Source: a virus. From it: DNA of 54,387 nt. The stretch spans positions 1 through 54,387 of the IMG/VR virus record IMGVR_UViG_3300010273_000001. One strand, written 5' to 3'. Below, piece after piece: positions 4,475 through 50,511 of the stretch; position 1 is the first letter of the stretch, and each line of letters opens with the position of its first letter. The translations under genes were made by a program, and so were the position numbers. The notes under the pieces are model-generated. The model made no database searches, was not told the origin of the DNA, and saw nothing but the letters and a program-made list of their open reading frames with translations.

Positions 4475-4494
4475 TTTATCTCCTTTCTGGAGTA

Positions 4495-4554
4495 TTACTA
4501 ACTCCATGAAGCCTGCGAAGACAAGAAATCTTCGTAGACTTTAGCAATTAGTAA
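4495..4554 (-). promoter_or_regulatory. intercistronic structured element, copy A
   Basis: Outer arms TTACTAA/TTAGTAA and an inner 12-bp hairpin AAGTCTACGAAG/CTTCGCAGGCTT. Conserved loops are TTGCTAAAG and CATGGAG. It fills the gap between the stop at 4565 and the SD at 4479..4486. Confidence 0.65.
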
Positions 4555-4564
4555 TAACAACGAC

Positions 4565-5256: not shown

Positions 5257-5637
5257 TTAACTATATAACATTGATATTACGTCAATAACATTGTCCACAT
5301 CATAATAATCGTTATAATAATCACCCGATAAATAGATAGCATCGTTGGGGTTGCCATTTGGCGGATAGACCATAACAGTCCACCAGCAGCGGCCGTCAGG
5401 GTCAGCTTCGCCGGTTTCTTCATCTTCCAAAATTGCGTTCCGGGCTGTCCCAACACAGACAATGTTTTTGTCGTGGTACCTTGTCCACGAGTTTGCCTCA
5501 TGATCAAAAAATACATCCGCCCAGACCTCGCCAGTATCAATATCTAGCATAATGTCAAGTCTGGATTGTCCGCCATTCCCGATTAACTCAGTATCTAAAT
5601 TATTAAGCCTATCGGTTGCCAAAATCAGCTTTTTCAT
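5257..5637 (-). CDS. hypothetical acidic protein, paralog A of 6505..6885
   Basis: SD GAAAGGAGG. The 126-aa product is near-identical at both ends to 6505..6885 and divergent in the middle. Confidence 0.7.
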   Translation of the reverse strand: MKKLILATDRLNNLDTELIGNGGQSRLDIMLDIDTGEVWADVFFDHEANSWTRYHDKNIVCVGTARNAILEDEETGEADPDGRCWWTVMVYPPNGNPNDAIYLSGDYYNDYYDVDNVIDVISMLYS

Positions 5638-5652
5638 AATTTATCCTCCTTT

Positions 5653-5865: not shown

Positions 5866-5911
5866 TTTTTATTATGCTTTTAGGCTGTCGGGCTTGTGAC
5901 CGTCTGCCTGG
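5866..5911 (-). repeat. 45-nt conserved element, copy 1 (partner 8362..8407)
   Basis: About 41/45 identity with copy 2. The core is GGCTGTCGGGCTTGTGACCGTCTGCC. The minus sense reads GTCACA-N18-CATAAT. Confidence 0.75.
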
Positions 5912-6059
5912 TTTTATACTCTTCTTCTGATATTTCCTCAACATCGACAATGTTTTTTACTCTCGCCTTGTTGATTGCTCCTTGTGCGTGATCATCCTTG
6001 ATGTACTTCGTGCCAATCCAATTGCGTGTTTTGTAATAGCTAATTTTCCAATATTTCAT
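5880..6059 (-). CDS. hypothetical small protein (59 aa; below the ORF-track cutoff)
   Basis: My translation gives MKYWKISYYKTRNW...RQTVTSPTA. SD CAGGAGG lies 8 nt before the ATG at 6059. It fills the gap between 6077 and 5838. Confidence 0.5.
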   Translation of the reverse strand: MKYWKISYYKTRNWIGTKYIKDDHAQGAINKARVKNIVDVEEISEEEYKTRQTVTSPTA

Positions 6060-6388: not shown

Positions 6389-6416
6389 TTTTTCACTCCT
6401 TTTTTATTTTTTGTGA

Positions 6417-6471
6417 GTTATTAACTCCATGGAGCCTGCGACCAAAGTCGCAAGCTCTAGCAGTTAACAAC
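6417..6471 (-). promoter_or_regulatory. intercistronic structured element, copy B
   Basis: Outer arms (GTTG)TTAACT/AGTTAA(TAAC) and an inner 11-bp stem GAGCTTGCGAC/GTCGCAGGCTC with one G-U. Conserved CTGCTAG and CCATGGAG. Confidence 0.65.
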
Positions 6472-6504
6472 TTTTAACTGCCCAATAAAGATAGATTACC
6501 ATTC

Positions 6505-6885
6505 TTATTCCTCCATATATAACATTGATATTACGTCAATAACATTGTCTACATCATAATAATCATTATAATAATCTCCTGATAGATAGATATCATCGGC
6601 TGGGTTGTCGTTTGGCGCATAGATTGTAATGTTCCAATCGCAACCCTCGACTTCTTCCCCGGTTTCTTCATCTTCCATCTTGCTATTTCTGGCAGTGCCT
6701 ATGCAAATAATGTTTTTGTCTTCATACCTTGTCCATGAGTTGTCCTCGTGGTCAAAAAATTCATCCGCCCAGACCTCACCGGTTTCGATATCTAACATGA
6801 TATCCAGCCGGGAATTGCCGCCATTGCCGATAAGCTCAGTGTCTAAGCTGTTAAGCCTATCGGTTGCCAAAATCAGCTTTTTCAT
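6505..6885 (-). CDS. hypothetical acidic protein, paralog B of 5257..5637
   Basis: SD AAAGGAGG; see paralog A. Confidence 0.7.
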   Translation of the reverse strand: MKKLILATDRLNSLDTELIGNGGNSRLDIMLDIETGEVWADEFFDHEDNSWTRYEDKNIICIGTARNSKMEDEETGEEVEGCDWNITIYAPNDNPADDIYLSGDYYNDYYDVDNVIDVISMLYMEE

Positions 6886-6929
6886 AATTTATCCTCCTTT
6901 TGTTTTACAAATTTAAAAAATCATTTACA

Positions 6930-7373: not shown

Positions 7374-7409
7374 GCTTGATGAACTCCTTTCTTTTTTTAT
7401 TTTTTGTGA

Positions 7410-7470
7410 GCTGCTAACTCCAGCAAGCTGACGATCTCTATATCGATCGTCAACTTAAGCAATTAGCAAC
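7410..7470 (-). promoter_or_regulatory. intercistronic structured element, copy C
   Basis: Outer arms GTTGCTAA/TTAGCAGC (one G-U) and an inner stem AAGTTGACGATC/GATCGTCAGCTT. The upstream stop at 7471 abuts the 5' arm. Confidence 0.65.
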
Positions 7471-7716
7471 TTACATTTCGGCATCCACAGCGTCAAGCGC
7501 AGATGCTAACGCTGCATCATCTCCGGCATCTGCCAGAGATTTTAAAGCCGGCAACACGCGGGCGAGATACTTTTCGCGCCCTATTGCTTGCCCTTTGCCA
7601 CCCCAAACAAGTGCGCCTCTAGATACCGCATCCAGGCGGTTTGCGTTCTGGTTGCAAATGATTTCATACTTTTTCTCGAGCTCTGCTAGTCGTCTGGCAT
7701 TTGCAAAACTTATCAT
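7471..7716 (-). CDS. hypothetical protein (81 aa)
   Basis: SD AAAGGAGGG precedes the internal ATG at 7716 (MISFANARR...). Visibly more GC-rich than its neighbours. Confidence 0.55.
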   Translation of the reverse strand: MISFANARRLAELEKKYEIICNQNANRLDAVSRGALVWGGKGQAIGREKYLARVLPALKSLADAGDDAALASALDAVDAEM

Positions 7717-7735
7717 ATTTACCCTCCTTTCTGAA

Positions 7736-7784
7736 GTTATTAACTCCATCAAGCCCGCTGAACGGGCTTTGTGCAATTAACAAC
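7736..7784 (-). promoter_or_regulatory. intercistronic structured element, copy D
   Basis: Outer arms GTTGTTAA/TTAATAAC (one G-U) and an inner stem AAGCCCG/CGGGCTT. Conserved TTGCAC and GATGGAG. Confidence 0.65.
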
Positions 7785-7795
7785 TAACAGCTTAT

Positions 7796-8361: not shown

Positions 8362-8407
8362 ATTTTATTATGCGTTCGGGCTGTCGGGCTTGTGACCGTC
8401 TGCCCGG
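8362..8407 (-). repeat. 45-nt conserved element, copy 2 (partner 5866..5911)
   Basis: Same core sequence, here entirely non-coding between the stop at 8419 and the SD of 8121..8345. Confidence 0.75.
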
Positions 8408-8418
8408 CTGCATTTCTG

Positions 8419-8811
8419 CTATTTTTCAATGGCTTTTAATATTGCGGCGTTTGTTTCTTCATCCGCTTGATTATTCCAGTTATCGTGGAATTCGTCTACA
8501 CCCTCCATCATTTCGTATAAAACCTCTTCGCCTATAATGTAGTAAAGCATATTGACGAGTTTTTCTGGATCGCTCAAATCGGTGTAAATTTCGCCAAAAT
8601 TCTCTTTTTCGTATGTCTGCACTTTTTCAATTGCTTCGAACACATCATATTCTTTCAGGGCTTCTTTGGCTTGATGGATGCCGATAATATAATAATCGGT
8701 ATTAAAAACTTCGTTATGCAAGTCGCAATAGTACCCAGAATAACCATTTTTTAACGCTTCGATTATAGCGTCTCTTGCTTCTTCTCTCATTTCTTGTTCT
8801 TTTTTATTCAT
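8419..8811 (-). CDS. hypothetical protein (130 aa)
   Basis: SD GAGGAGG upstream. The ATG overlaps the stop of the upstream small ORF (ATGA). Confidence 0.65.
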   Translation of the reverse strand: MNKKEQEMREEARDAIIEALKNGYSGYYCDLHNEVFNTDYYIIGIHQAKEALKEYDVFEAIEKVQTYEKENFGEIYTDLSDPEKLVNMLYYIIGEEVLYEMMEGVDEFHDNWNNQADEETNAAILKAIEK

Positions 8812-9781: not shown

Positions 9782-9865
9782 AAATTCTCCTTTCTCGCTC
9801 TGCCTTTTTCATCCCGGCTTGCGACGGGCAATGGCGGCATTAAGAAAGGACTGCGTCCTTTCGGC

Positions 9866-10099: not shown

Positions 10100-10327
10100 T
10101 TAAACCTCCTTGTTATCAGTTATTATTCCATGATAAACCGTTACCCAGAATTCAGGATCCAATTTCAAGTAATCTTGCAGAATTTCTTCTCTTGTTTTGT
10201 CTAAATCATATACTTGATATTTTAGATCAGTTTTCATGCATAAAGATATCATGTCCCAATCGCAGATGACTTCGCCAATTTTAATGTCGTTAAAGACTAA
10301 ATCACATTTAATAACCTTTTTATTCAT
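10100..10327 (-). CDS. hypothetical protein (75 aa)
   Basis: ATGA start/stop overlap with 10324..10518. Confidence 0.6.
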   Translation of the reverse strand: MNKKVIKCDLVFNDIKIGEVICDWDMISLCMKTDLKYQVYDLDKTREEILQDYLKLDPEFWVTVYHGIITDNKEV

Positions 10328-10518
10328 AGTTTCACCGCCTTTTTAAAATCTGGTTTTTCGCCTAACTGGAAAACACTCTCTCTTAATCTATGGTAGCCTT
10401 TTTCATCTAGTAACTTTTTTAATACTTCAATGTTGAGTTTTTCATCAGATTCAGCAACCAACTCCTCATCCCATAAAGGATGCCCTTTTTTGACAGCCCA
10501 ATATAAATAGATTACCAT
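10324..10518 (-). CDS. hypothetical protein (64 aa)
   Basis: SD GAAGGAGGAA upstream of the ATG. Confidence 0.6.
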   Translation of the reverse strand: MVIYLYWAVKKGHPLWDEELVAESDEKLNIEVLKKLLDEKGYHRLRESVFQLGEKPDFKKAVKL

Positions 10519-10539
10519 TCCTATTCCTCCTTCTGAATT

Positions 10540-10773: not shown

Positions 10774-10795
10774 TTTTTAATTCTCCTTTCTGGAG

Positions 10796-10853
10796 CATTA
10801 CTAACTCCATGAAGCCTGCGAAAATTCTTCGCAGACTTTAGCAATTAGTAATG
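10796..10853 (-). promoter_or_regulatory. intercistronic structured element, copy E
   Basis: Perfect 9-bp outer arms CATTACTAA/TTAGTAATG and an inner stem AAGTCTGCG/CGCAGGCTT (one G-U). The upstream stop codon TAA (10845..10847) is part of the 5' arm. Confidence 0.7.
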
Positions 10854-11057
10854 ATTGATTAATTCCCTTTTGCCTTCTCTTTCCCATTCCGCTTTTTCTG
10901 CCAGAAATCTGTCGATTTCCGCGTTTTGCCTTTCAGCACCCCTAATCTTCCCTATAATCTCCATGTTCCTTCTCACATTCGTAAATGGGTTGCTGTAAAG
11001 AACACCGTTCACTTCTACAGAAAAATAGCCTTGATTAAAGTATTTTGATTTTCCCAT
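10845..11057 (-). CDS. hypothetical protein (70 aa), first gene after the AT-rich hub
   Basis: SD AAGGGAGAA upstream of the ATG. Confidence 0.6.
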   Translation of the reverse strand: MGKSKYFNQGYFSVEVNGVLYSNPFTNVRRNMEIIGKIRGAERQNAEIDRFLAEKAEWEREGKRELINHY

Positions 11058-11197
11058 CAGTTATTCTCCCTTCTTTTAGCGCTTCGCTATTTTTTTTCAC
11101 CTTGATTATACTATATAGAGTTCGTTTTCGCTTGTTTTTTTTCTTTTTTTATATTCGTATGCATCGTTGCACGGCCTGTTTACCGTAATAATACCTT

Positions 11198-11214
11198 GGC
11201 GTTTTTAAGACTTT
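11198..11214. repeat. 17-nt direct repeat GGCGTTTTTAAGACTTT, copy 1
   Basis: Perfect match to 11459..11475. Confidence 0.9.
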
Positions 11215-11308
11215 AATGGCCAAAAAATTAAGATGAAAAAAGAATTTAAAAATTCAAAAAGATTTAAAATAATTTCTCAAAATTTACTTTTTTGTCTTAT
11301 AACTTCCG

Positions 11309-11324
11309 AAATGTTGTAATATTT
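11309..11324. repeat. 16-nt inverted repeat, left arm (AAATGTTGTAATATTT)
   Basis: Perfect reverse complement of 11442..11457; the arms are 117 nt apart. Confidence 0.9.
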
Positions 11325-11441
11325 AGTGTAATAACCATAGAATGAATTTTTTTTTGAAGATAAAATATATATGGTGAGGTGTGTGTGTTAGGAAAAATAA
11401 AATGTGATAAAAAAAATATTCTATATATAGGAAATTACATC

Positions 11442-11457
11442 AAATATTACAACATTT
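11442..11457. repeat. 16-nt inverted repeat, right arm
   Basis: Reverse complement of 11309..11324; abuts direct-repeat copy 2. Confidence 0.9.
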
Positions 11458-11458
11458 G

Positions 11459-11475
11459 GGCGTTTTTAAGACTTT
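11459..11475. repeat. 17-nt direct repeat GGCGTTTTTAAGACTTT, copy 2
   Basis: Perfect match to 11198..11214. Confidence 0.9.
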
Positions 11476-11524
11476 TTTTAAGATTTTTCAAAATTTTTTA
11501 AAACTTTTTAAAACTTTTTAAAAT
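11471..11524. repeat. 10-bp phased A/T tracts (AAAACTTTTT-like units, about 5 copies)
   Basis: The sequence reads acttttttta|agatttttca|aaatttttta|aaacttttta|aaacttttta in exact 10-bp register. Confidence 0.85.
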
Positions 11525-11584
11525 AATGGCTTTTGCGTGCTTTGTGGCTACTTTTAAGACGCTTTTGTATCAACATGTATACGT

Positions 11585-11610
11585 AAAAAAAAGACCCGAG
11601 ATGGGTCTTT
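11585..11610 (-). terminator. intrinsic terminator after 11613..11954
   Basis: The minus sense reads AAAGACCC-AUCUC-GGGUCUUU followed by a U7 run, 3 nt after the stop codon. Confidence 0.75.
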
Positions 11611-11612
11611 GG

Positions 11613-11954: not shown

Positions 11955-11966
11955 TCTCCTTTCCGA

Positions 11967-12029
11967 AGTCTGCTGACTCCAAAAAACCCACAACCGCATG
12001 CGGTTGTGGGCTCTAGCAATCAGCAGACT
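11967..12029 (-). promoter_or_regulatory. intercistronic structured element, copy F (inner hairpin is terminator-like)
   Basis: 10-bp outer arms AGTCTGCTGA/TCAGCAGACT. The inner hairpin CCCACAACCGC/GCGGTTGTGGG is followed by T6. The upstream stop TAG overlaps the 5' arm. Confidence 0.65.
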
Positions 12030-12450
12030 AGTCTAGGTAGAGGTCGCACAGTTTGCTGACTTCTGCAAGGATTGTTTCCTTAGTGATGGTCGGATTCATG
12101 AGTTTTTTGATTTCCGCGTTGATAAACCGGATCGCCGCCAGATCTGTTTCGTCCAGATCCGCTTTGTCAAAAAGTCGTTTCTTTTCCTTTTCTAGCTCTT
12201 CCAGCGCGTCTTTGTCCACCTGCTTGAAGTAGTCAACCAGCCGCAGGAAGTCGGCTTTCAGCCGTTCTTCTTTTGAGCGCATGGTGCGGCTGCTTTCGGT
12301 GCGTTCCACCACCTCCCATCCCGCTGCTGCCAGATCTCTTAAACAAGCGGCGGTGTTTTTGCCAGTGCCGCTGTAGCCAGTCAACACCCTAATGGCTTCA
12401 TTAGGGGAATTAAAGGTTCTGACTTGTTCGCCATTCTTAAGTTTGATCAT
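12028..12450 (-). CDS. hypothetical protein (140 aa), first leftward gene
   Basis: SD GAAAGGAGG lies 7 nt before the ATG. Confidence 0.65.
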   Translation of the reverse strand: MIKLKNGEQVRTFNSPNEAIRVLTGYSGTGKNTAACLRDLAAAGWEVVERTESSRTMRSKEERLKADFLRLVDYFKQVDKDALEELEKEKKRLFDKADLDETDLAAIRFINAEIKKLMNPTITKETILAEVSKLCDLYLD

Positions 12451-12477: not shown

Positions 12478-12550
12478 CTACTATTAAACCGTTTCCTTCC
12501 GTTTTTTTGTGTATTTTATGCGCAGCACGGCTCCGCTAGTTCGCGTGGTC

Positions 12551-12586
12551 CCGGTTCCGGTTCCGGTTCCGGTTCCGGTTCCGGTT
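12551..12586. repeat. hexanucleotide microsatellite (CCGGTT)x6
   Basis: Six perfect tandem copies read directly; degenerate flanks at 12547..12590. Confidence 0.95.
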
Positions 12587-12588
12587 CT

Positions 12589-12632
12589 GGGCGTTCCTGC
12601 GCGCGCCGGGCGTTCCTGCGCGTTCCTGCGCG
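12589..12632. repeat. three copies of CGTTCCTGCGCG (two within GGGCGTTCCTGCGCG)
   Basis: Copies at 12592..12603, 12611..12622 and 12621..12632. Confidence 0.9.
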
Positions 12633-12750
12633 CACCGGGGGGGGGTCGCCACGGAAGTCGCCCGCTGCCGCGCGCCCGGGGGGGGTATAGTCCACCTCCA
12701 TCGTTAACAGAAAAGAAAGGGGGGTAAAGCGAACAAAAATTTGCAATAAT

Positions 12751-31258: not shown

Positions 31259-34200
31259 ATGAATATTAAGTATGTCGGCTTAAAACCAGAAGAAGCACTT
31301 CTTAAAATTCAGAGCGATGCCGTTCAAGCAATAAGGGAAAAAGTCGAGGCTTATAGGAACAATGTCGACAAACTTCTTGCCGCCTACGAACCGCCTGAGG
31401 TTGATAGTTTTTGGGGAGCGATGGCTATTGCGCCTGCTACTCTTTATAGTCTAATTAAAAGTGGTTTGGATAGTTTAGTCGATTTCGGAGCTTCTTTTGC
31501 TTATGTCATCGAAAATGCGATTAACGATGCAATGCATATCTTCGATTCATCGGACGGAACGGATTGGCGGACGGATACCAAATATTTTTTTGGTAATTTA
31601 GGGCTTTCACTCCATGAAGCAATTAGCACTTCGCTTGTTTCTACAGGGGCTAATCTTGGACGGGTTATCGGCATTGATCCTAAATGGGCTTACGGGGAAC
31701 AGGGATTAATTCCGAAGATGGCTCGGCAGTATAACCTTTCTCGTTCCCAATTGCTTGCTTCTCCGGATAAAATCAGCATATTTAAGCCATATCAACCTGT
31801 TGAAGATTTAATGTCGAGCCAATGGGAAGAGTATAGGAAATATCTTGATTTTGCTGAGGGGAGAACTCCGGAACAAATTATCGAAGATCGCTATTACGAA
31901 GACATAAGAAATGCTATTGTTCAAACCGGCGAATTTCAGAATTGGGTCTCGCGTAATTTCGTGGAACCGATTGCAAATACTCTTACTTTGGGCACTAAAA
32001 AGTATGCCGATAGATATTACAAAGATAGCGAATTTTATAACTTCCTTATGGGGGCTGCTGAAAGTGCGGGGCGCATTCTTGCTTCTTGGGCGGTTGCTAA
32101 GATCGGTGCAAAAGCCGGAGTTAATCCTCAAACGTTGAGTTCGGCTTACTTTGCCGCGTCCATTTTTGCGGACAGTTTTGAGGAAGCTTTGAAAAACGGT
32201 GCTACTATGCAAGATGCCTATACTTACGCGGTAGGAACAGCTTTTCTTGAAACGGCGATCGAGAATTTTGGCGGTCGGACAACGAGCGGCGTAAAAAAAG
32301 CGGCAAAAAGAAGTCTGTTCGAAAAAGTCCTAGGAGAGAAATGGGGAAATATTGTCCAGCAGGCTGTCGAAGAAGGTCTTGAGGAAATTGGCTCGGAGGT
32401 TGCCGGAACAGGTCTTTCTTATTACGGGAGCGGTGAAAGACAAGTTGATTCCGCCGAAAGCTTCCGGGAATTCGCAAACAGAATAATGTTTTCGTTTTTA
32501 AGCGGCTCTATTACTTCGATGGGTCTTGGAATTGGGCATGATATGTATATTGACACAACCGCTATCGGTAAATCCCGACGCGTTCTTACCGATATAAGTA
32601 AACAAGTGACTTCTGAAAATTCCAATAAAGTTTATAGCCGTTTTCAAAAAGACCTTGAAAACTTTGTTGCGTATATAAATCGTCCGGATGCTAAAGGTCT
32701 GAAAACAACCACAAAAATCGTGGCGCCTTCCGGGGATGTTATCGGGCCAGCCGATGTAGGAGACGTCAAAAAAAAGGAAGTCTCGCAGTATGTAGGCGTC
32801 TTAACTCCGGAAGAAAAGAGCCGGTATATCCGTCAGATTGGGTTAGCAAATGTTATTGAAGAAGTTGACGGTAAATTCCAAATAAGAGAAAAAGCGCGGG
32901 AAATGGGCGATAAAATTTTTGCCGTTCGGGTTGGAGATAATGTCGTAAACAGAGCCGATTATGCAATCAATGACGCCGTTTGGGGTGTTGATATTAGCGA
33001 TGATGGCACAACCGAGGTTGTCAAAATGGCTAATCTTAATGAACGGGGCAAAAAGATACTTGATATCGCTCAAAAACGCAACATACCAATCGCTATTATT
33101 GACGAAGCGCCGAGAGGGAAGAACGATCTGGGGATTTCCGGATTTTATTCGGCAGATAACGGAATTATTTATATAAATCAAAATCCGAATGTTGATATGA
33201 CAGATGAAGAAATCGAATCGGTAATTATAAAGCACGAATTAGTCCATCATATCGCTAGCAAAAATCCGGAATTGTTTGAAAAATTAAAGAAAATGGTTAA
33301 TAAATTCGTTGATTTTGAAGTCGATGGGGAAGGCAAAAAGATTGATGTTACCTATAAGAATAAAAAAGTAGGTGAAATTCTCGAGAAAAAAGGTTTTTCG
33401 GATCATGTTTTGAAATCGTTCCTGGATTATTTTGAGGGATTAAAGGATATGAATTTTGCCGTAAAACAAGCGCAAGAAGAAGTTGTTGCTTATTTTGTCG
33501 AGGATATGCTCGAAGGCGGCGATTTTTTAGAGATTATCTCCAAAAAAGATGAGAAGCTGTTCGAAGAATTAAAAAACGAGACTACTGATGCTATTGATAT
33601 GGCTGTAGGCGAAGATAAAAAACTTGCCCGGAAGCTGAAGAAAATCCGAAAGAAGTTTGAGACTATTGCCGAAAAGACTTTGGCTCAAAAGAGGACGCTT
33701 CAGTCCTATATTGATCATTTCCTTGGCTCGGGATATGTTCTCGAAGATATGTTCAATAAAGAATTGCTTGAGAAATACGACGCTGAATATCTTTGGGATA
33801 TGTTATGGGAGACGTACGAAAAAGATCCTCAAGCAAGAGAAATCAAGATTGACGGCAAAGTTTATCCGCTTTCGCAAGTCTTGGCGCGGACTGCTAATGT
33901 CAAGCCAAAACGGCTTGCCCGTCCGGATTGGGATAGAATATATTCCGAGTTTAAGTATGACGCGCAAGAAAAGACTTTATATCTGAAACTTCTGCGAAAA
34001 TTTATTAATGAGAACAAATATGTGCAGGATGAAGAAATTCGGGAAATAGTTGGAGATGCTGAATGGGCGGTTGATAAAATTAGAGACGGGGGCGAATTGC
34101 GCGAATCCGAATATGAGATTCTCCGGCAATTAGTTACAGATTATAAATTTAGCGAAGCGGAAAAGAAATGGAGAGAAGAAAACGAAAAGGTTCTTGAAAC

Positions 34201-37200
34201 TACTAAATTCCGCGTACTGAAGAATTTAATCGCCCGAGTTGTCCGTTTCATGAACGATCCACAGAAATCTGGAATTACCGGTTGGCGTAATAGAAGTCAC
34301 ATTATGAGATATAATGCGGCTTATTTAGCGCTGGATAAATCGGCAAGGAAAGAAGGCGAAAGCGTCGAAGCTTTCGCAAAAAGAATTCAGATGATTACTT
34401 CGTTGAGTTTAGAGCCGTATTTCCCCGAGCAATTCAATGTCACTTATTATATCCCGGATAAAGCCGATTATATCGAATTCTTGATTAAACCGACGAGAGA
34501 ATTCTTGGAAGAAGAAACAAGAAAAGCGGAAGAAGCTGAAATCAAAAAACAAGAGACCACGGAAGTTGAGGGGCTAATGCCGGCAAAACCGCCTGTCAAA
34601 ACAACGAAGGAAGATTCTATAAATGCTCTTGAAGAAATCGGGGTTACTCTTGAAGGGAAAAAAGTTATCACTCTTGATGACAATATAACCTTGGAAAAAC
34701 TAGAAGAGATAAAATATGACGACAATAATATCGTTGTCGGGAATCCTCCGTTTGCCGAGAATAAGAACGCTGAATATTTAAAGAAAGCTCTTGAAATCGC
34801 GCCGGTTGTTGCGATTGTTTTGCCGCGTCCGTGGGCTAAATCCTATATGTTACAGAAAGAGATCCCGGGAGATAAGAAACTAATTTATAACGAGCTTATT
34901 CCGCTGAAATCTCTTAAAACTAGCTCGGGCAATCGGCAGATGAAAACGGTCGTTCAAATTTGGGTTGATTCCAAAAACAAAGAATTTGAAGATTTCGAAA
35001 ATATCCGGGCATTCTTTCAACCAAAAATGGCGCATCCTGATTTTTCCACATTTACTTTGACCGGCGAAAGACGCAAGTATGAGGATGCGAAATATTTCAA
35101 TTTTGATTTGGCAGTTGTTAGGGAAAGCAATACGGCTAAATTCAGTGAGATAATTACGAAGTATGAGGATTTGAAACCTAAAGGCCATTATCTTTTGATT
35201 AAAGCTAACAATCCGGAAGCGTTACAGATTTTTTCTATGATTGACTTCGAAGCGCTTGCCGACAAAGGCTCGACAATACAGAGGGGATTTACTACCTATG
35301 ATTTGATTGAAGAATATGAACGTATCAAGAAGGAGGTAAAATCCATTAAGACGCCTATGAAACGGCTTGCCGACGACACGAAACTCACGGACAAGGAACG
35401 GAAGTATTTAGGTGAGATTGCCGAGTATTTTACGAAAGATAAGTCTGGAAAATTCGTTATTAAATCCGAATATATCGTGAGGCAAAAACCGGCAAAACAA
35501 GCGGTTAAGATCAACGGCGTTGTTTATTCCTCGGACGAATATGCGGTTCATACCACCGTAGATTTGTCGAGCGTAAACGCGGAACTTAAATTGAAGCGGA
35601 GCGAATTTGAAAGACCTCTAAAACTTTCGGAACTTTCCGAAAAAGAACAGGTTTGGTTTGATTTTTTCCGAGCTTCGAATATGAACTTCGTTTTATATCG
35701 AGCCCCCCAAAATGCTTCTATTTTAGGATTTGAATATCCTTCGGAAGAATCTTATGTCGTTTATATCAATACGGAATATCTGTATCATAATTTTGATAAT
35801 TTTCATAAATTTCTTACCGGGACTTTCGTTCATGAACACGTGCATGAATTAAATAAAAGAAACAAGGCGAGAGCATTTAAGTTTGCCGCTGAACTTGCTA
35901 ATATTTTATTCGAAGTCAAAGACGGCGAAATTGTCCAGAGCGATATATTTAAAAAGATTGAAGAAACACGCTATAAAGACTTTGGTTCTTTTCTCCGTTA
36001 TATGAAAAACTCTTATTGGTATTTAAATAGCGGAAATAGTTTCTCATCTTATAAAGATCTTTATAATGCTTTAATTAAAGGAGATAATGGTGACCGTTTG
36101 CATTATCGGGTTGTAGATGAAGTTGTCGCTCAGATATGCGGCGTTCTATTCTCGGATTATGAGGTTTACAAGACTGTATTCCAAGGCAAAGCGGAAAACA
36201 TCTTACCTTTCCATCAACTCTATACGAAAATTCTTGATGATCCGAATATTCCGATAATGGTAAAAGAACAGATACGCAAAGCCGTTTTTGCTCTTGAAGA
36301 TGCTTATAAGGAATTTCTGGCTGATCTTAAAAAGAAATTTCCGCCTGAGGCCATCTATAAACTGCGCGATCTCAATAAATTTATTCGGTCGTTTACGAAT
36401 AACCGTTTCCGTTCAAGAAATGATCTTATCCAGCGATATTTGGAAGAAAGAGCGAATCATAAGCACGGTTTGGCGCATATGGCGGTCGATAACATAATTT
36501 ATATCGCTTCGTTGTTTGCGGAGCAGACGCAAAAGGGCTATGAATTCTATCAAAATATGAAAGAAGAATTCGAAGGTTTCCGAAAAAATATCGAGTTTCT
36601 TCTCAATAGCGAAGATGATTTGACGGTTCTTCAAAAAGGCGAGATTCGCCAACTGGTGAATCTTTTGATTAAGCAAAATATCTCCGAAGAAGGATTCATA
36701 TTGAGTGAGGGCGGGCTGGATCTCGTTGATAGAATTTTGGAATTTGCGGAAGAATACGAAATGATTCCGGAAGAATTGCTAAAAATTTTTGGCTTGCCTA
36801 CCCATAAGGAAATTATAAGCGTTGCCGCAGAACTCCAGAGAAATCAAGCCGAGGGAAATGCAACAGCTTTTCAAGTCAATTTCAGGGAATTCAAATCGCT
36901 TTTGAAGAAGATAAAACAGGTTTTGACGAGCGAGACCGATGATATTTTTAGGAAGATAGCCGATTTAAAAATCGCTTATCGCGAAAAAGAAATGGATTTG
37001 TTTATAACAAAACTTAAAAATCATTATGCCGCTTCCAAAAAGAAAATAACTTCCGTGAAACTTCAGTCCGAATCTCCGTTCAAAGAAACTCTTGCGGAAG
37101 TTATGACCTTAATTGCCGGCGGTAGGATTAACGGGGTAGATATTCCCGGAATCATTCAAGTGGTTCAAAATAACAAATATAATCTCAAGCAATTAAGAGC

Positions 37201-40200
37201 GGAAATCGTTCCTTTGCTTGAGAAAATTCGGGAACTTGCTCGAAAAAGCCCAGATATCCCGGAAGATGTTTTTGAAGAATACATCGAGCCGAGATTCAAA
37301 ACCATATACCGTCATCTTGCTTTGCTTTTGAAAGACCCCTCCGTTCTTTATGAAGTTTACCCGCCGGTCAAAAAAGAAGGAGGCCCTCAAAGCATCGACG
37401 AAGTTTTCGGAACAGTTATCACACTTGAACGGCTCGGGGGAAAATTTAATGCGAATGCTTTTGCAAGGGCTTTGATGGAAATATTGGAAAGATTCCAGAC
37501 TAGGTATACCACGTCTTTGAGCGGCGATACGCTAACTCATGATGAATATGCGGCGAAAACCAGCAAACAGGTTATTCAATTTAAAGACAAACTTGCAAAT
37601 GTCAATGCTAGGGCGGTCTCTTGGCTTATGCCTTATCAATTCTTCTTTGGAATGTATAAGGATTTAGTGGGTAATGAGATTGAATTCTTTTCCGATTTCT
37701 ACCGTGAATACATCGCGTCGGTTATGCGGCGCAGTGATATTCTTGCGGAATATAAAGAATCGTATAAAGAATGGGTAAAATCTCATAAAAAACATCAGAA
37801 GTTCACGCTCGAAAAAACGGAAGTCGCGAAGAATATGTTGCTTCAGATCCGGAAGGACGTGCTTCTTAATCTTGCCGGAGAAGCGCGGAGAGAGTATGAA
37901 GAAGATCGGCAGAAATACGAAGAAGCAAAAGAGGCTTATAATGAAATAAAAGATCAACTCGCGGCTAAAAACGCGCAAATCAAAAATACAAAAGAGGCTT
38001 TGAAAGGGCATGAAGAAAAATCGTTTACTTGGACAGCTCTTAAAAAACTTCTCGAACAATACGAAGAAGAGAAAAAGGCGTTGGTAGAAGAGAAAAATGA
38101 AAGAAAAATTATAAGGGATAATCTAAAAATCCTGCTTGAAAATGAAACGATTGAAAAGAGAACGAAATCCAAGATTTTTGAATGGGCTGCGGAAAACAAA
38201 GCAAAGAACTCGGAAGTCAGCTGGGGGCAGATAATAACAACTTATCTTGCGGTAGAGCGCGAGATTGAGATGGAAACAGCGGAATACGAAGATGTCCCGG
38301 GGATCAATCCAACGAAACACTTCGAATTCGGAAATGTCCTGCATTTCTTTGATAATGAATTGCTTTGGAAAAAAGGTTATGCCGTCGCGAAAGACAACGC
38401 CATTCCGTTCGTTATTTTTGCGGATAACAAAGAGAAATTGCGCGATTATCTTTGGGGGTTGATAAAGGATAACGAAATCGCACAAGAAATAATTAATTTT
38501 GCTAAAGAGCGGTTCGATAAAAACTATGAATATATTGACGAAATCTTTTTTGCGAAATATGGCGTTCATTTACCTCGGCAAGAAACATATGTTCCATTTG
38601 CGTCTCTCGAGAGCGATTATGCTCGGGATGTTGAATTAAAGATTATCAACCGAAGAAACATGGCTACCCCAGACGGCTTTGTTATGGAAACAACGCTGGG
38701 AGCAAGGACGGATTTAAGAATTGAAAACATCTTTGCGGTAATCGAAAACCATACGAGATCGATAGCCAATTATTGCGGTTTTAATCGGTTGCTTTACGAT
38801 TGGCAGAATCTCTATGTTAACAAGGCCGGCGGAGCGCCTTTGCAAGAAGCCTTTACCGGAAAGGACAATAAATTCGGGCAAAATAACGATATTGCGCATA
38901 TGATTGAACAGGCTTTTGCCGACAATCTCGGTTATGGGGATGTCATGGCAACCCCGGTTGAAAAATGGGCAAATAAAGTTTTGCTTAACAGTATGGCGGC
39001 GACAATGTCGGTAAATATCCCGTCAATGGTAAAGCAGTTCGCCTCGGTTTTGACGGTAATGATTAAACATAAATTGTCTCCGAGTGCTTTCATTAAGAAT
39101 GTTGTGTTGAGTTTGGGTCGATCTAAATATCGGAATTGGCTCCTGAAAAACAATAGCAATTTTTATCATAGAGCCGACGCCGGCAATGTTCCGCATTTAG
39201 CGGACGCGGCAAATCTCGGTATTTACTATATTGCGCAAGATGTGACAAGAAAAATCGCAAATACCTTAACGAAACATATTGGTTGGGCAGATAACACTGT
39301 TCTTGTCGCGGCTTTCAAAACGATAGCGGACGAGGTCAGAAAGCAAAATCCAGGGATGCCGGAAGAAGAAGTTTTGAAAAAAGCGAACGAGCAATTTATG
39401 GAGGTCTTGTTGTTTGGAGTGGCGAATACCGATCCGGGATTCCGGGCGCATTTCTCTAACTCAAACAAATTCCCAACAAGATTTGCAAGCCGTTTCCAAA
39501 GCGAGAACATCATCCATGCGGCAGCACTTTACCGGGATTATGTCTATGTCAGAAACGGCTATTCGGGCGGGTGGAAAAGATTTGCCCGAGACTTTATCGC
39601 CTTCTTGTTATCGGCTTTGTTCACGGCTTATGTATCGAATACTTTCAACCGAATGAGAGGTTATTACGAGGATAAAGAAGAAGCTGATTTTGACTTTTGG
39701 GTGAATGAGCTTCTACTTAATAATATTATTGGAGGCCTTCCGGTTGTAAATCAATTTACTTCCCTTATTCAATTTGAAAAACCAAAAGACGGAGGAGGCA
39801 AGTTAATTAGCGCCGGATTTTCGCCTAGGTTGCCGGGAATAACCGAGGTATACGAAATAATAAAGGCGGTAGATTCAATGCAAACAGGCAAGAATATACC
39901 CCGTAAAATCTTGAGAATTTTTGAGAATATCGGGAGCATGGTCGGATTCCCGGTTAAGAATATCAATCGGCTTATCTCGACGACCTCCCGGTTGCTTGGG
40001 GCGCAAGGGATCGAGCAAGCGGAAAGCATTGCAAGATTCTACAGCTCGCAAACAAAAGCGCAAGCATTCACGGCGGCTATCAAAGAAAACAATCGGACAA
40101 AAATCAACATGTATGTAGAAGAAGTTTATGGCGATCTCGAGGTTCGTAATGAAATAGTTAACTTGCTCGCGGCAAACCCGGATTTAAGATTGAATCTGTA

Positions 40201-40468
40201 TAATGTGAAATATTTCTCTAAAGACAAGGTGAAATATGCTATACCAGAAGATGTGAGAGAGAAATATAATGATTTGGCTCAAAGAGCCTTGCGGATTTTG
40301 ATTCGGAAAGGCGCTTATAAACGGATGAAAGCCGAAGATAAAGTCAAAGCAATGCAACGGATAATAAATTACCACTACAATTACATGAAATCCGTTGTAT
40401 TGAAAGAAAAACGCGAATTGCTAAGTCCCGCCGAGGTTGTCGAACGAGCATTAAAAATAGAGGGCTAA
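31259..40468 (+). CDS. giant polyvalent protein (3069 aa): two zincin-like HExxH modules plus an NPPF methyltransferase-like module
   Basis: Uninterrupted 9.2-kb ORF with SD AGAGGAG. Motifs are HELVHH (aa 659), NPPF (aa 1162) and HEHVH (aa 1525). Each HExxH is preceded by a similar ...(I/V)YIN... segment. Confidence 0.8.
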   Translation: MNIKYVGLKPEEALLKIQSDAVQAIREKVEAYRNNVDKLLAAYEPPEVDSFWGAMAIAPATLYSLIKSGLDSLVDFGASFAYVIENAINDAMHIFDSSDGTDWRTDTKYFFGNLGLSLHEAISTSLVSTGANLGRVIGIDPKWAYGEQGLIPKMARQYNLSRSQLLASPDKISIFKPYQPVEDLMSSQWEEYRKYLDFAEGRTPEQIIEDRYYEDIRNAIVQTGEFQNWVSRNFVEPIANTLTLGTKKYADRYYKDSEFYNFLMGAAESAGRILASWAVAKIGAKAGVNPQTLSSAYFAASIFADSFEEALKNGATMQDAYTYAVGTAFLETAIENFGGRTTSGVKKAAKRSLFEKVLGEKWGNIVQQAVEEGLEEIGSEVAGTGLSYYGSGERQVDSAESFREFANRIMFSFLSGSITSMGLGIGHDMYIDTTAIGKSRRVLTDISKQVTSENSNKVYSRFQKDLENFVAYINRPDAKGLKTTTKIVAPSGDVIGPADVGDVKKKEVSQYVGVLTPEEKSRYIRQIGLANVIEEVDGKFQIREKAREMGDKIFAVRVGDNVVNRADYAINDAVWGVDISDDGTTEVVKMANLNERGKKILDIAQKRNIPIAIIDEAPRGKNDLGISGFYSADNGIIYINQNPNVDMTDEEIESVIIKHELVHHIASKNPELFEKLKKMVNKFVDFEVDGEGKKIDVTYKNKKVGEILEKKGFSDHVLKSFLDYFEGLKDMNFAVKQAQEEVVAYFVEDMLEGGDFLEIISKKDEKLFEELKNETTDAIDMAVGEDKKLARKLKKIRKKFETIAEKTLAQKRTLQSYIDHFLGSGYVLEDMFNKELLEKYDAEYLWDMLWETYEKDPQAREIKIDGKVYPLSQVLARTANVKPKRLARPDWDRIYSEFKYDAQEKTLYLKLLRKFINENKYVQDEEIREIVGDAEWAVDKIRDGGELRESEYEILRQLVTDYKFSEAEKKWREENEKVLETTKFRVLKNLIARVVRFMNDPQKSGITGWRNRSHIMRYNAAYLALDKSARKEGESVEAFAKRIQMITSLSLEPYFPEQFNVTYYIPDKADYIEFLIKPTREFLEEETRKAEEAEIKKQETTEVEGLMPAKPPVKTTKEDSINALEEIGVTLEGKKVITLDDNITLEKLEEIKYDDNNIVVGNPPFAENKNAEYLKKALEIAPVVAIVLPRPWAKSYMLQKEIPGDKKLIYNELIPLKSLKTSSGNRQMKTVVQIWVDSKNKEFEDFENIRAFFQPKMAHPDFSTFTLTGERRKYEDAKYFNFDLAVVRESNTAKFSEIITKYEDLKPKGHYLLIKANNPEALQIFSMIDFEALADKGSTIQRGFTTYDLIEEYERIKKEVKSIKTPMKRLADDTKLTDKERKYLGEIAEYFTKDKSGKFVIKSEYIVRQKPAKQAVKINGVVYSSDEYAVHTTVDLSSVNAELKLKRSEFERPLKLSELSEKEQVWFDFFRASNMNFVLYRAPQNASILGFEYPSEESYVVYINTEYLYHNFDNFHKFLTGTFVHEHVHELNKRNKARAFKFAAELANILFEVKDGEIVQSDIFKKIEETRYKDFGSFLRYMKNSYWYLNSGNSFSSYKDLYNALIKGDNGDRLHYRVVDEVVAQICGVLFSDYEVYKTVFQGKAENILPFHQLYTKILDDPNIPIMVKEQIRKAVFALEDAYKEFLADLKKKFPPEAIYKLRDLNKFIRSFTNNRFRSRNDLIQRYLEERANHKHGLAHMAVDNIIYIASLFAEQTQKGYEFYQNMKEEFEGFRKNIEFLLNSEDDLTVLQKGEIRQLVNLLIKQNISEEGFILSEGGLDLVDRILEFAEEYEMIPEELLKIFGLPTHKEIISVAAELQRNQAEGNATAFQVNFREFKSLLKKIKQVLTSETDDIFRKIADLKIAYREKEMDLFITKLKNHYAASKKKITSVKLQSESPFKETLAEVMTLIAGGRINGVDIPGIIQVVQNNKYNLKQLRAEIVPLLEKIRELARKSPDIPEDVFEEYIEPRFKTIYRHLALLLKDPSVLYEVYPPVKKEGGPQSIDEVFGTVITLERLGGKFNANAFARALMEILERFQTRYTTSLSGDTLTHDEYAAKTSKQVIQFKDKLANVNARAVSWLMPYQFFFGMYKDLVGNEIEFFSDFYREYIASVMRRSDILAEYKESYKEWVKSHKKHQKFTLEKTEVAKNMLLQIRKDVLLNLAGEARREYEEDRQKYEEAKEAYNEIKDQLAAKNAQIKNTKEALKGHEEKSFTWTALKKLLEQYEEEKKALVEEKNERKIIRDNLKILLENETIEKRTKSKIFEWAAENKAKNSEVSWGQIITTYLAVEREIEMETAEYEDVPGINPTKHFEFGNVLHFFDNELLWKKGYAVAKDNAIPFVIFADNKEKLRDYLWGLIKDNEIAQEIINFAKERFDKNYEYIDEIFFAKYGVHLPRQETYVPFASLESDYARDVELKIINRRNMATPDGFVMETTLGARTDLRIENIFAVIENHTRSIANYCGFNRLLYDWQNLYVNKAGGAPLQEAFTGKDNKFGQNNDIAHMIEQAFADNLGYGDVMATPVEKWANKVLLNSMAATMSVNIPSMVKQFASVLTVMIKHKLSPSAFIKNVVLSLGRSKYRNWLLKNNSNFYHRADAGNVPHLADAANLGIYYIAQDVTRKIANTLTKHIGWADNTVLVAAFKTIADEVRKQNPGMPEEEVLKKANEQFMEVLLFGVANTDPGFRAHFSNSNKFPTRFASRFQSENIIHAAALYRDYVYVRNGYSGGWKRFARDFIAFLLSALFTAYVSNTFNRMRGYYEDKEEADFDFWVNELLLNNIIGGLPVVNQFTSLIQFEKPKDGGGKLISAGFSPRLPGITEVYEIIKAVDSMQTGKNIPRKILRIFENIGSMVGFPVKNINRLISTTSRLLGAQGIEQAESIARFYSSQTKAQAFTAAIKENNRTKINMYVEEVYGDLEVRNEIVNLLAANPDLRLNLYNVKYFSKDKVKYAIPEDVREKYNDLAQRALRILIRKGAYKRMKAEDKVKAMQRIINYHYNYMKSVVLKEKRELLSPAEVVERALKIEG
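33233..33250 (+). other. HExxH motif 1 (HELVHH)
   Basis: Read from the translation, aa 659-664. Confidence 0.9.
34742..34753 (+). other. NPPF motif (N6-adenine MTase motif IV-like)
   Basis: DDNNIVVGNPPFAE, aa 1162-1165. Confidence 0.85.
35831..35845 (+). other. HExxH motif 2 (HEHVH)
   Basis: FVHEHVHEL, aa 1525-1529. Confidence 0.9.
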
Positions 40469-40483
40469 TTGCCCTCTTTTTTT
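40459..40483. terminator. hairpin terminator shared by the two convergent arms
   Basis: AGAGGGC-TAATT-GCCCTCT followed by T6. The stop codons of both convergent genes lie in or next to the loop. Confidence 0.7.
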
Positions 40484-41508
40484 GTTTCTGAAAATAATTG
40501 ATCTAAAAATGTCGGCTCGGCCTCGCCTTTGTTGTTCCAATAGATGTTTTCAACCACCTTTTTCTTCGGCTTGTTGTCGCCTAAATCGCCGTTATCGAAT
40601 AATTGAATCTTGTAATCAAAATTTATTGGCTTAATATCTTCCGGGGCTTCATAGGACGAAACATAAACCGGATACGGGCAAGTCCTAAACCATTGCCAAA
40701 ATTTCTCGTAATCAAATTCACCTCCGAATTGGTATTGAGCCTTATTTTCATACGGCGGATCACAATAGATGAACGCTTCTTTGAGAATAACATCCGGCAA
40801 GGAATTATAGAAATCGAGCCAATCCATAGCCGAGAGATTAAGCCGATTCTGGTGCGGAATTGCGCGTTTTATTGCATCGAGATGTTCCATTTGCTGTAAA
40901 TGCTGCATTTGAACGAGTAATTTTAATACAGGATATTCTTTTTCGTGTTCTTCGGCATACTTTTTAAATTTTTGCATAAATGCAGTTCTTTTGGTATAAT
41001 GTCGCTTGTAATCAACATTTCTGATTATTTCCGGGACGGTAAAATCTTCGAGTTCTTTCAGTTTTTTTATTTCGCTGAAATCATCAAATACTAAAGCATT
41101 ATGTAAGGCTTTTTTGTAGAAATCCCGGTCGGGGCCGTAAAGATAATGTCTTTGGTTGATTCCGAAAGACCAAACATTGAGGACGAAACCGACATACCAA
41201 TCTGGGTATTTTTCGGGATTATCGCGTACCTCTTCGAAATGTTCGCGGGAGACCCAATTAAATTTTACCGTTTTTAAGTCGGAATTTTCGTTTATAATCG
41301 CTTTTATAAGGGCGATAAGGTATTTATTAATATCGTTCGCAAAAACGATATAGTTCGAATTTACAAGCGCAAAATTCGAAACGGAGAAGCCGCCGCAGAA
41401 TAAATCAATAAAATATCTTTTTTTGTATTCGCGCTCGAAGATATAACGAATTAAGTGCAAGATTTGCTCTTTACTCCCCATGTAAACCATTCCGTATCTT
41501 CTGTTCAT
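40465..41508 (-). CDS. dam: Dam-like (D12 class) N6-adenine DNA methyltransferase
   Basis: YMGSK N-terminus, motif I DLFCGGFSV and motif IV YCDPPY. Confidence 0.85.
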   Translation of the reverse strand: MNRRYGMVYMGSKEQILHLIRYIFEREYKKRYFIDLFCGGFSVSNFALVNSNYIVFANDINKYLIALIKAIINENSDLKTVKFNWVSREHFEEVRDNPEKYPDWYVGFVLNVWSFGINQRHYLYGPDRDFYKKALHNALVFDDFSEIKKLKELEDFTVPEIIRNVDYKRHYTKRTAFMQKFKKYAEEHEKEYPVLKLLVQMQHLQQMEHLDAIKRAIPHQNRLNLSAMDWLDFYNSLPDVILKEAFIYCDPPYENKAQYQFGGEFDYEKFWQWFRTCPYPVYVSSYEAPEDIKPINFDYKIQLFDNGDLGDNKPKKKVVENIYWNNKGEAEPTFLDQLFSETKKEGN

Positions 41509-49554: not shown

Positions 49555-50511
49555 TTAACTAAAATCTAAATAAAACTGATAGTGTGTATTTTTAATCCTT
49601 TTTTGGGCCATTGAAACATATTCAGGGTTTATTTCAATCCCTATCCAATTACGTCCTAATTTTTTTGCTACTACTCCGGTAGTTCCGCTTCCCATAAACG
49701 GATCCAAAACAATTCCGTCTTTCGGGCAACCAGCTTTTATTGGAGTTTCGATAAGCTCCTCAGGGTATACTGCGAAATGTAGCTCACTAAAATTTCTTGT
49801 CGATATAGACCAAACAGAACGTTTATTTCGCATAAGGTCTACGGGTGGTTTATACCTATCATTAAAACCTATATAATCATTTCTCCCAACTAAATCTTGT
49901 TTTCTTCTTCCACTATTTATTTGACCTATAACCCCTTTACTTCCTCTAGGTGGATTAATATCTTCTGTAACCATAGGTTCTTTTTGTTGTTCAAAGTAAT
50001 ATTTTTTATTTTTAGTAAAGAAAAATAGTTTTTCAAAATCAACCGTAAACCGATCTTTAACGCTTTCCGGCATAGCATTCGGCTTATGCCATATAATTTC
50101 GTTTCGAAGAATATAGCCTAGTTCATCGGTCATCATAAGGGCAAACCGAGATGGTATTTGCAACAGACATTTACCAGTATATTTTTTGCTCAATGAAATG
50201 CTTTGACCGTTTCTACCGTTTTTATATTTAGGATCTTTATAGTTTTGCTTATCGCCAGTTCCACCATAGGCATCCCCTAAATTTACCCAACAAGAACCTT
50301 CTGCTTTTAAAACTCTTTTTACTTCCGCAAATATTTCGCATAACTTTTCTAAATATTCTTCTAAAGTATCTTCTCTACCTAATTGATCTTTTACTCCATA
50401 ATCTCTTAATCCCCAATAAGGCGGAGATGTGATTACCATATCAACACTTTCACCAGGGAATGTTTTCAGAATCTCTAAACAATCCCCTTGATAAATATGA
50501 TTAATTTTCAT
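49555..50511 (-). CDS. beta-class DNA methyltransferase (N4-C/N6-A family; SPPY type)
   Basis: Motif IV ITSPPYWGLRDYG near the N-terminus and motif I DPFMGSGTTG near the C-terminus. Confidence 0.85.
   Translation of the reverse strand: MKINHIYQGDCLEILKTFPGESVDMVITSPPYWGLRDYGVKDQLGREDTLEEYLEKLCEIFAEVKRVLKAEGSCWVNLGDAYGGTGDKQNYKDPKYKNGRNGQSISLSKKYTGKCLLQIPSRFALMMTDELGYILRNEIIWHKPNAMPESVKDRFTVDFEKLFFFTKNKKYYFEQQKEPMVTEDINPPRGSKGVIGQINSGRRKQDLVGRNDYIGFNDRYKPPVDLMRNKRSVWSISTRNFSELHFAVYPEELIETPIKAGCPKDGIVLDPFMGSGTTGVVAKKLGRNWIGIEINPEYVSMAQKRIKNTHYQFYLDFS

Follow-up and report, generated by a model that had tools for sequence, protein, structure and literature searches.

The stretch at 10774-10853 of the window (the whole 54,387-nt stretch of viral DNA analysed in this study) carries on its minus strand a hairpin, copy E, which lies between two early genes and 5' of the next Shine-Dalgarno (SD) sequence. 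Our analysis suggests that this stretch is most likely an mRNA-processing signal, and not a new ribosome-driven switch as proposed in the initial annotation. Copy E belongs to a family of conserved elements, and this family probably represents cis-acting processing signals for host RNase III, of the SP82/SPO1 class, with putative cleavage in the leftward early polycistronic mRNA of the phage.

The element family and its place in the early gene block

The window belongs to a tailed phage and codes for a large terminase, a major head protein, a helicase-primase and several methyltransferases. A minus-strand block of small genes runs from about 12,450 down to 1 and includes SNF2, DUF3846 and RadC-like genes; the majority of the early proteins have no recognisable family. 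Strong GGAGG-type SDs are found all across the window. TerL homologues, which belong to MAGs labelled 'Bacilli bacterium' or 'Tenericutes bacterium', are the sole pointer to the host. A search of the phage collection gave no DNA match for this phage, whose genome is about 54 kb or more.

Exactly six copies of the element (A-F) were identified in the window by a repeat search and by R1, a covariance model built from the window copies only. All six are on the minus strand, and each lies directly upstream of the SD of the next gene. Coordinates of the copies and of the parts of copy E are shown in Table 1, together with scores for R1 and for R2, a model built from SPO1 sites only. On the minus strand copy E reads CAUUACUAAUU-GC-UA-(AAGUCUGCGAA GAAUU UUCGCAGGCUU)-CAU-GG-AGUUAGUAAUG-CUCC-AGAAA-GGAG-N9-AUG, with the inner hairpin in parentheses. 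It folds at -32.8 kcal/mol (RNAfold, z -6.2) and scores 78.1 bits with R1 and 23.5 bits with the SPO1-only R2 (E 1e-4). In its core the G of the 5' half faces G10807, the C pairs with G10808 and UA lies in a 2x3 internal loop.

Table 1. Positions of the six element copies, the parts of copy E and the two genes that flank it.
Feature	Position	Strand	Details
Copy A (A/E type)	4490-4559	-	Upstream of DUF3846 gene (Pfam); R1 73.9 bits, R2 18 bits
Copy B	6413-6475	-	R1 72.7 bits; R2 32 bits, E 4e-7, best match of the SPO1 model in the window
Copy C	7406-7474	-	Upstream of RadC-like gene (Pfam); R1 73.6 bits, R2 12.1 bits
Copy D	7732-7788	-	R1 50.1 bits, R2 8.8 bits
Copy F	11965-12031	-	R1 71.2 bits, R2 26.8 bits
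Copy E element: 11-bp outer stem, conserved core and inner hairpin	10796-10853	-	RNAfold, R1, R2; extent 10793-10856 in the repeat and R1 searches
Copy E 5' arm CAUUACUAAUU	10843-10853	-	Upstream stop codon UAA inside, at 10847-10845
Copy E core, 5' half G-C-U-A (UUGCUA with preceding UU)	10839-10842	-	Invariant columns
Copy E inner hairpin, 11 bp, loop GAAUU	10812-10838	-	Fold
Copy E core, 3' half CAUGGAG (the earlier 'pseudo-SD')	10805-10811	-	UGGAG invariant in 17 of 17 distinct rows
Copy E 3' arm AGUUAGUAAUG	10796-10806	-	Fold, alignment
Copy E alternative 3' hairpin, UGGAGU (10809-10804) : GCUCCA (10796-10791), loop UAGUAAU	10791-10809	-	
Copy E SD-masking mini-hairpin, CUCC (10795-10792) - AGAAA - GGAG (10786-10783)	10783-10795	-	Minimum-energy fold
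Copy E SD GAAAGGAG	10790-10783	-	
Downstream early gene, 77 aa	10540-10773	-	No family match; AUG 10773-10771, 9 nt past SD
Upstream early gene, 70 aa	10845-11057	-	No family match

The six copies fold as two-stem hairpins with energies of -30 to -44 kcal/mol and z values of -4.4 to -7.1. The architecture consists of 11 bp, a G.G mismatch, a C:G pair, a 2x3 loop and a further 7-14 bp, giving about 23-26 stacked base pairs in all, or two helical turns. The core is near-invariant, with 5' A-Y-U-G-C and 3' U-G-G-A-G-U forming the pairs A-U, Y-G and U-A, the G.G mismatch and the C-G pair beside the 2x3 loop. A terminator scan found the inner hairpin of copy F to be GC-rich and followed by U6, which is terminator-like; no other copy is terminator-like.

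Including close relatives of the phage, 16 distinct variants of six types (A/E, B, C, D, F and G) were collected, and 17 distinct rows entered the covariation alignment. In this alignment 97.6% of the cells are paired and 14 of 21 pairs are altered on both sides. None of 500 shuffles reached as high a value, and slid registers were 23-47% paired. The inner hairpin is free to vary in sequence among copies while its pairing is kept, 8 of the 9 modelled pairs being altered on both sides. The G.U pairs of the stems are possible only on the gene-sense strand, and every copy, in the window and in the relatives, lies on that strand between minus-strand early ORFs. Hence stems that have diverged and yet stay paired, together with an invariant core, point to selection on RNA structure rather than to recent copying.

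When viral contigs, metagenomes and genomes were scanned for the pattern and the results filtered with R1, the family turned up solely in close relatives of the phage. The viral-contig scan gave 39 loci, of which L026 alone was real, and none of the six loci from the genome-contig scan was real. Apart from the window and L026, no R1 match above 20 bits occurred in the window and 435 kb of mostly unrelated viral contigs. A TerL-based search of IMG/VR returned near-identical contigs only. Relatives with about 60% TerL identity (L042, L044 and L046) have syntenic early blocks, yet they possess no copies and no ribozymes, and the element is therefore dispensable for this phage group. The element had no match in Rfam at gathering or at permissive thresholds, and no promoter-like site was found in any copy. 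In three relatives (L026 at about 380-410, L067 at about 270-295 and L073 at about 1185-1210) the 5' arm of the A/E type is tandemly duplicated, UCAUUACUAAU occurring twice, which provides two possible partners for the 3' arm.

Three candidate interpretations of the element were rejected. A MITE or transposon is out, as the arms covary and are not conserved. An integron attC-like site was dropped; there is no integrase, the core is unlike R'/R'' and the link to SPO1 explains the element better. The AUG of the conserved CAUGGAG is not a start codon, being CUG in copy C, UUG in copy F and out of frame in copy E.

Several other features of the window were recorded. A Twister-P1-like ribozyme is present at 9792-9846 (-), with 48.2 bits (gathering score 67.2) and an E-value of 1.5e-8; it lacks only an optional hairpin, the conserved core strands being intact. 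Like the elements, it sits between a stop codon and an SD, and its 3' P1 strand overlaps GAGAAAGGAG. A twister-like ribozyme in this position fits an operon RNA that is cut between cistrons, and such cutting has been proposed as a role for phage-associated ribozymes (PMC6765202). Weak Twister-P5-like matches of 22-24 bits at 8384-8420 (-) and 5888-5943 (-) share a common loop, CGGUCACAAGCCCG, and may be degenerate or permuted twisters. A direct repeat of 91% identity (5867-5911 and 8363-8407) is located at these two matches, and the match at 5888-5943 overlaps a predicted ORF of 59 aa.

In the early block, a 126-aa gene is duplicated (5257-5652 and 6505-6900, 81-85% DNA identity), and further diverged copies of it are held by relatives L054, L059 and L063. 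A 555-nt AT-rich non-coding stretch (11058-11612) contains phased T/A-tract repeats with a period of about 10 nt, especially at 11464-11526, and an inverted repeat of 62 nt (11294-11355 and 11411-11472); bent DNA, an origin or a promoter region are possible readings of this stretch. In its host-takeover module SPO1 has an array of phased tracts, with period 11, that is strikingly similar (L085 11333-11496). A strong terminator (11610-11590, -) lies ahead of the AT-rich stretch. In the divergent region that separates the early block from the terminase genes, GC-rich short tandem repeats occur at 12547-12640, with GGTTCC units at a period of 12 nt and CGTTCCTGCG at a period of 10 nt. Three DNA methyltransferase genes (40465-41508, 49555-50511 and 50542-52506 (-)) and the SNF2, DUF3846 and RadC-like genes of the early block form a rich anti-restriction repertoire. 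The structural region includes a single ORF of 3069 aa (31259-40468, +), for which Pfam gave no more than a weak match to a CDI-toxin restriction-endonuclease-like domain.

Correspondence with the RNase III sites of SPO1 and SP82

Analysis of the SPO1 host-takeover module with R1 revealed matches in four intergenic gaps within 14 kb, all on the sense strand, with 17-24.5 bits and E-values of 5e-4 to 0.025. Three of the R1 matches coincide with the labels 'RNAse III site RS-A', 'RS-C' and 'RS-D' given by the depositors of AF031901.1, labels which are annotation and may themselves have been assigned by similarity; RS-B was matched more weakly. In the opposite direction, R2 applied to the 54-kb window returned copies B, F, E, A and C as its top five matches (32 to 12 bits) and copy D as the seventh; scores across the two families are modest (9-32 bits) and their E-values rough. 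The R1 search also found matching RS-type sites in SP82G.

The agreement extends to sequence and fold. UGGAG is present in all five SPO1 sites, and UUGCUA also occurs in the SPO1 RS sites. The five SPO1 sites fit the pattern UUGYUAG-N-AUGGAGCC, in which N stands for the hairpin, against 0.01 expected. SPO1 RS-A to RS-D share the fold topology of the window copies, namely a stem, an unpaired G, a C:G pair, a 2x3 loop and a stem. The motif is absent from SPO1 RS-E and RS-F.

The best SPO1 match to R1 lies between genes 58 and 57 (AF031901.1 10536-10598 (-), equal to FJ230960 12221-12283) and has no RS annotation. This may be a further, sixth RS-type site that has gone unrecognised, or else a site with more than one fold. 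AF031901.1 places terminator TL2.7 here on a competing hairpin, in which the 5' flank (CUAGCAA) pairs with UUGCUAG; TL2.7 is thus not the inner hairpin of this look-alike, a reading that was tried and found to be wrong.

The Bacillus RNase III (Bs-RNase III) sites of SP82 and SPO1 were reportedly characterised by Panganiban and Whiteley in 1983, Mitra and Bechhofer in 1994 and Stewart et al. in 1998. Yao et al. (2007, PMC1935012) describe the SP82 target RNAs as having internal loops and as being cut by Bs-RNase III at one site, on the downstream strand, and DiChiara et al. (2016, PMC4838370) cite SP82 RNAs as known targets of this enzyme. According to the review by Nicholson (PMC3867540), RNase III substrates span about 22 bp or two helical turns, internal loops direct cuts to a single strand, and hairpins at the 3' end stabilise the RNA.

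By the precedents of SP82 and T7, RNase III would make one cut in each window element, near CAU/GGAG on the 3' (downstream) strand; the cut position and the mapped sites of SP82 are taken here from secondary citations and from the annotation of the SPO1 record. In copy E, CAUGGAG is likely the region of this single cut. The upstream cistron, whose stop codon often lies within the 5' arm, would stay intact, and the upstream RNA would end in the stable inner hairpin as a 3' stabiliser. The terminator-like inner hairpin of copy F would yield much the same 3' end. Once the strand is cut, the 11-bp outer duplex would fall apart and the downstream RNA would start at about UGGAG, its first 19 nt or so being expected to fold into a UGGAGU...ACUCCA hairpin. 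The new 5' end would then consist of a hairpin followed at once by a strong purine-rich SD, GAAAGGAG in copy E, as in the SP82 5' stabiliser. For the A/E type, this hairpin would also sequester the CUCC that masks the SD, and cleavage would turn on translation of the next gene.

The SPO1 sites also form an alternative 3' hairpin from UGGAG (-4.7 to -7.5 kcal/mol), and their SDs, at a distance of 13-36 nt, are open in both states. Since the hairpin occurs in SPO1 with SDs that are always open, it seems to belong to the class as such, and SD masking seems to be a local elaboration. We tentatively put forward, as a possibility that falls well short of the processing assignment, that the element acts as a processing-triggered, riboswitch-like device. 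In such a device an RNase III cut, or a ribosome where the stop codon is in the arm, would free the 3' arm; a 5' hairpin of UGGAG with CUYC would protect the new end, and the SD of the A/E type would be unmasked. If this is true, the invariant GGAG has a double role, being read by the nuclease and used in refolding, and the 3' hairpin of SPO1 and SP82 is an unrecognised functional part of a 40-year-old model substrate.

Ribosome-driven refolding and other explanations

The initial annotation held that a 'pseudo-SD', GGAG, just 5' of the 3' arm can pair with a CUCC-like segment just 3' of that arm, that the 3' arm then becomes a loop, and that a ribosome terminating on the upstream gene melts the outer stem and so exposes the real SD. 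The alternative pairing of UGGAGU with ACUCCA is real and specific to the 3' side. Pairing of UGGAG(U) with CUYC 3' of the arm was found in all 16 variants. The hairpin, taken from the U of UGGAG to 7 nt past the arm, has -3.6 to -10 kcal/mol, with p<=0.05 against shuffles in 15 of 16 variants; the mirror segment on the 5' side, used as control, forms no such hairpin (mean -1.3 kcal/mol, p<=0.05 in 1 of 16). For copy E the values are -7.6 kcal/mol and p 0.002-0.007, and the hairpin excludes the outer stem. The description of GGAG as a segment 5' of the arm needs correction. The outer stem has 11 bp, not 9, and takes in the last two bases of GGAG; of its leading GG, the first base is paired to a conserved C and the next stands opposite a conserved G. 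GGAG therefore belongs to the 3' strand of the helical core, and the 'pseudo-SD' is not a free segment. Likewise, the 3' arm turns into a loop in the A/E type only; in types B, C, D, F and G the alternative stem takes up half of the arm.

Masking of the SD varied between the types. As claimed, CUCC of copies A and E also pairs with the real SD in the minimum-energy fold, and the probability that the SD is unpaired is 0.01. For the A/E type as a whole this probability is 0.01-0.19 with the element closed and 0.47-0.98 with the 5' arm blocked or the RNA cut at UGGAG; copy E gave 0.01 closed, 0.47 with the 5' arm blocked and 0.54 when cut at U10809. Computationally, once the outer stem of the A/E type opens, UGGAGU captures ACUCCA and the SD becomes free (unpaired with a probability of 0.47-0.97). 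The F type changes from 0.02-0.55 to 0.74-0.99; its mask, present in two of three F-type variants, is a CCUCU of the upstream coding region and not the 3' flank. In types B, C, D and G the SD is accessible already in the closed state (0.36-0.78), which is hardly altered by blocking or cutting, and the CU of CUYC is locked within the closed outer stem. Hence masking of the SD in the closed state is not a family trait, the SD being open anyway in four of the six types.

The positions of the upstream stop codons were found to be roughly as first described. Relative to the first base of the 11-nt arm they lie at +6 (E), -2 (F), -2 (C), -11 (A), -13 (D) and -35 (B); across all contexts they range from +6 to -55, with 8 of 17 between -5 and +6. 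A ribosome that terminates covers roughly 9-12 nt beyond the stop codon. In the seven A/E-type variants the stops are at +6, -7, -11, -11, -18, -19 and -19, so a ribosome at the stop would open the outer stem in only one or two of them, contrary to what had been supposed. A masked SD and a reachable stop seldom occur in one copy; copy E has both.

These results bear directly on the proposal of a ribosome-actuated coupling switch, in which the ribosome at the upstream stop melts the outer stem, UGGAG takes CUCC and the SD is exposed. The refolding logic computes for the A/E type, copy E included, and the proposal is right only as local refolding logic in this one type; as an explanation of the family it fails. 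In its favour, copy E has every part, with the stop in the arm and an SD that opens when the 5' arm is blocked, the alternative hairpin is specific to the 3' side, stops close to the arm are found in nearly half of the contexts, and the CCUCU that masks F-type SDs would surely be opened by translation. Against these points, the SDs of B, C, D and G need no unmasking and their anti-SD is shut in the closed stem; the A/E type, the sole type in which CUCC masks the SD, has stops at -7 to -19 in six of seven variants, beyond the reach of the ribosome. The model leaves the most conserved parts unexplained, namely the inner hairpin, the G.G mismatch and the 2x3 loop; the homologous SPO1 sites have distant and open SDs, and a hairpin of -30 to -44 kcal/mol would re-close once the ribosome departs. 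The model rested on two near-identical copies and did not survive comparison with the other types and with the relatives; we consider it unlikely. Given this failure and the core shared with SPO1 and SP82, the stem is more likely opened by RNase III cutting its 3' strand than by a ribosome.

Another factor could target the hairpin, such as a phage or host RNA-binding protein using it as a translational operator or another endonuclease, or the hairpin could be a new self-cleaving RNA. The conserved internal loop and the G.G mismatch do have the look of a site for specific recognition, twister-like motifs are found at equivalent places of the operon, and most early proteins belong to no recognisable family. 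Yet protein family searches of the window proteins found no RNA-binding or RNase domain encoded by the phage, Rfam gave no match even at permissive thresholds, and a plain hairpin with a single small internal loop is, to our knowledge, unlike any known self-cleaving fold. The link to SPO1 and SP82 moreover supplies a specific and documented enzyme, which leaves recognition by another factor quite improbable. The remaining explanation denies the copies any RNA function of their own and takes the copies for DNA-level recombination cassettes similar to PeSL, or for plain 3' hairpin stabilisers or insulators, with a core that reflects recent common descent. The copies do coincide with breakpoints of gene-cassette exchange between related phages, as a secondary effect. 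Homology among relatives breaks at the element edges, and one upstream gene (...VDAEM) is followed across relatives by three element variants and three different downstream genes. The family is limited to a narrow lineage, the phage codes for a Sak-like annealing protein and a Cas4-like nuclease, and a gene remnant adjoins copy B. Just upstream of B lies an 88% match, 43 nt long, to the SD and the first 12 codons of the gene at 10324-10518 (6472-6514 against 10488-10530); it ends in a stop within the 5' arm of B and looks like a recombination scar. However, the stems are fully diverged yet paired, including G.U pairs possible on the sense strand alone, around an invariant core; this core recurs in unrelated Herelleviridae phages with entirely different stems, and the element has no promoter. 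This explanation is likewise quite improbable, and processing by RNase III remains the preferred one.

Comparison with known systems

The results extend the SP82/SPO1 RNase III signal, for which there is no Rfam family, beyond SPO1-like myoviruses to an unrelated uncultivated phage in which the stems are wholly different. The two sets of sites give a compact consensus of stem, UUGCUA, hairpin, CAUGGAG and stem, with the G.G mismatch. This consensus could help in annotating processing sites of Firmicute phages and in studying target choice by the 'narrow-specificity' Bacillus RNase III. The alternative 3' hairpin, common to both sets, adds a testable feature to the classic model.

Like the RS sites of SPO1 and SP82, the window elements lie between small early genes on the sense strand, shortly ahead of a strong purine-rich SD. 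Both sets share the outer stem, the unpaired G, the C:G pair, the 2x3 loop and the inner hairpin, with strands UUGCUA(R) and (C)AUGGAG; both form the alternative 3' hairpin from UGGAG, and each model detects the members of the other set. The differences are in the phages and in detail. SPO1 is a 132-kb member of the Herelleviridae, to which the window phage (about 54 kb or more) is unrelated. Beside the core, the SPO1 outer stem has GGUU/AGCC whereas the window copies have AU-rich AAUU/AGUU, and the SD follows at 3-21 nt in the window family against 13-36 nt in SPO1. Placement of CUCC to mask the SD, as in the A/E type, is a further difference from SPO1 and SP82. Cleavage, studied in SP82, is a prediction for the window copies.

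The early mRNA of T7 has five RNase III signals (PMC3867540); there, one cut at the 3' side provides the upstream RNA with a 3' hairpin that stabilises it (PMC3867540, PMC1935012). As in T7 (R0.3, R0.5, R1, R1.1 and R1.3), several hairpins with internal loops are found between early genes of the window phage; the host enzyme and the sequence determinants are different. We know of no report that the T7 sites share the UUGCUA/AUGGAG core.

The 5' end predicted after cleavage, a hairpin followed by GAAAGGAG, would resemble the 5' stabilisers of Bacillus, which comprise the polypurine, RBS-like sequence of SP82 and 5' stem-loops. In SP82 the effect is credited to the purine-rich sequence and not to a hairpin, which differs from the window element; PMC7509114 and PMC11805744 cite Hue et al. 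1995 for this RBS-like 5' stabiliser.

PeSL mobile regulatory cassettes of T4-type phages (Arbiol et al. 2010, PMC2839356) are, like the window elements, repeated intergenic regulatory motifs among small non-essential early genes, and they coincide with breakpoints of insertion, deletion and replacement between close relatives. A PeSL, however, comprises a sigma-70 promoter and a terminator stem-loop, whereas the window elements have no promoter and only copy F is terminator-like.

Translational coupling offers a parallel to the refolding of the A/E and F types. In MS2 coat-replicase and E. coli rpmI-rplT, a structure that masks the SD is unfolded by ribosomes, and similarly the SD of the A/E and F types is paired in the closed state and freed when the upstream part is held open. 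Unlike those systems, most types of the window family have no masking, and placement of the stop codon does not track masking. The parts of the element that are conserved are, furthermore, not needed for coupling.
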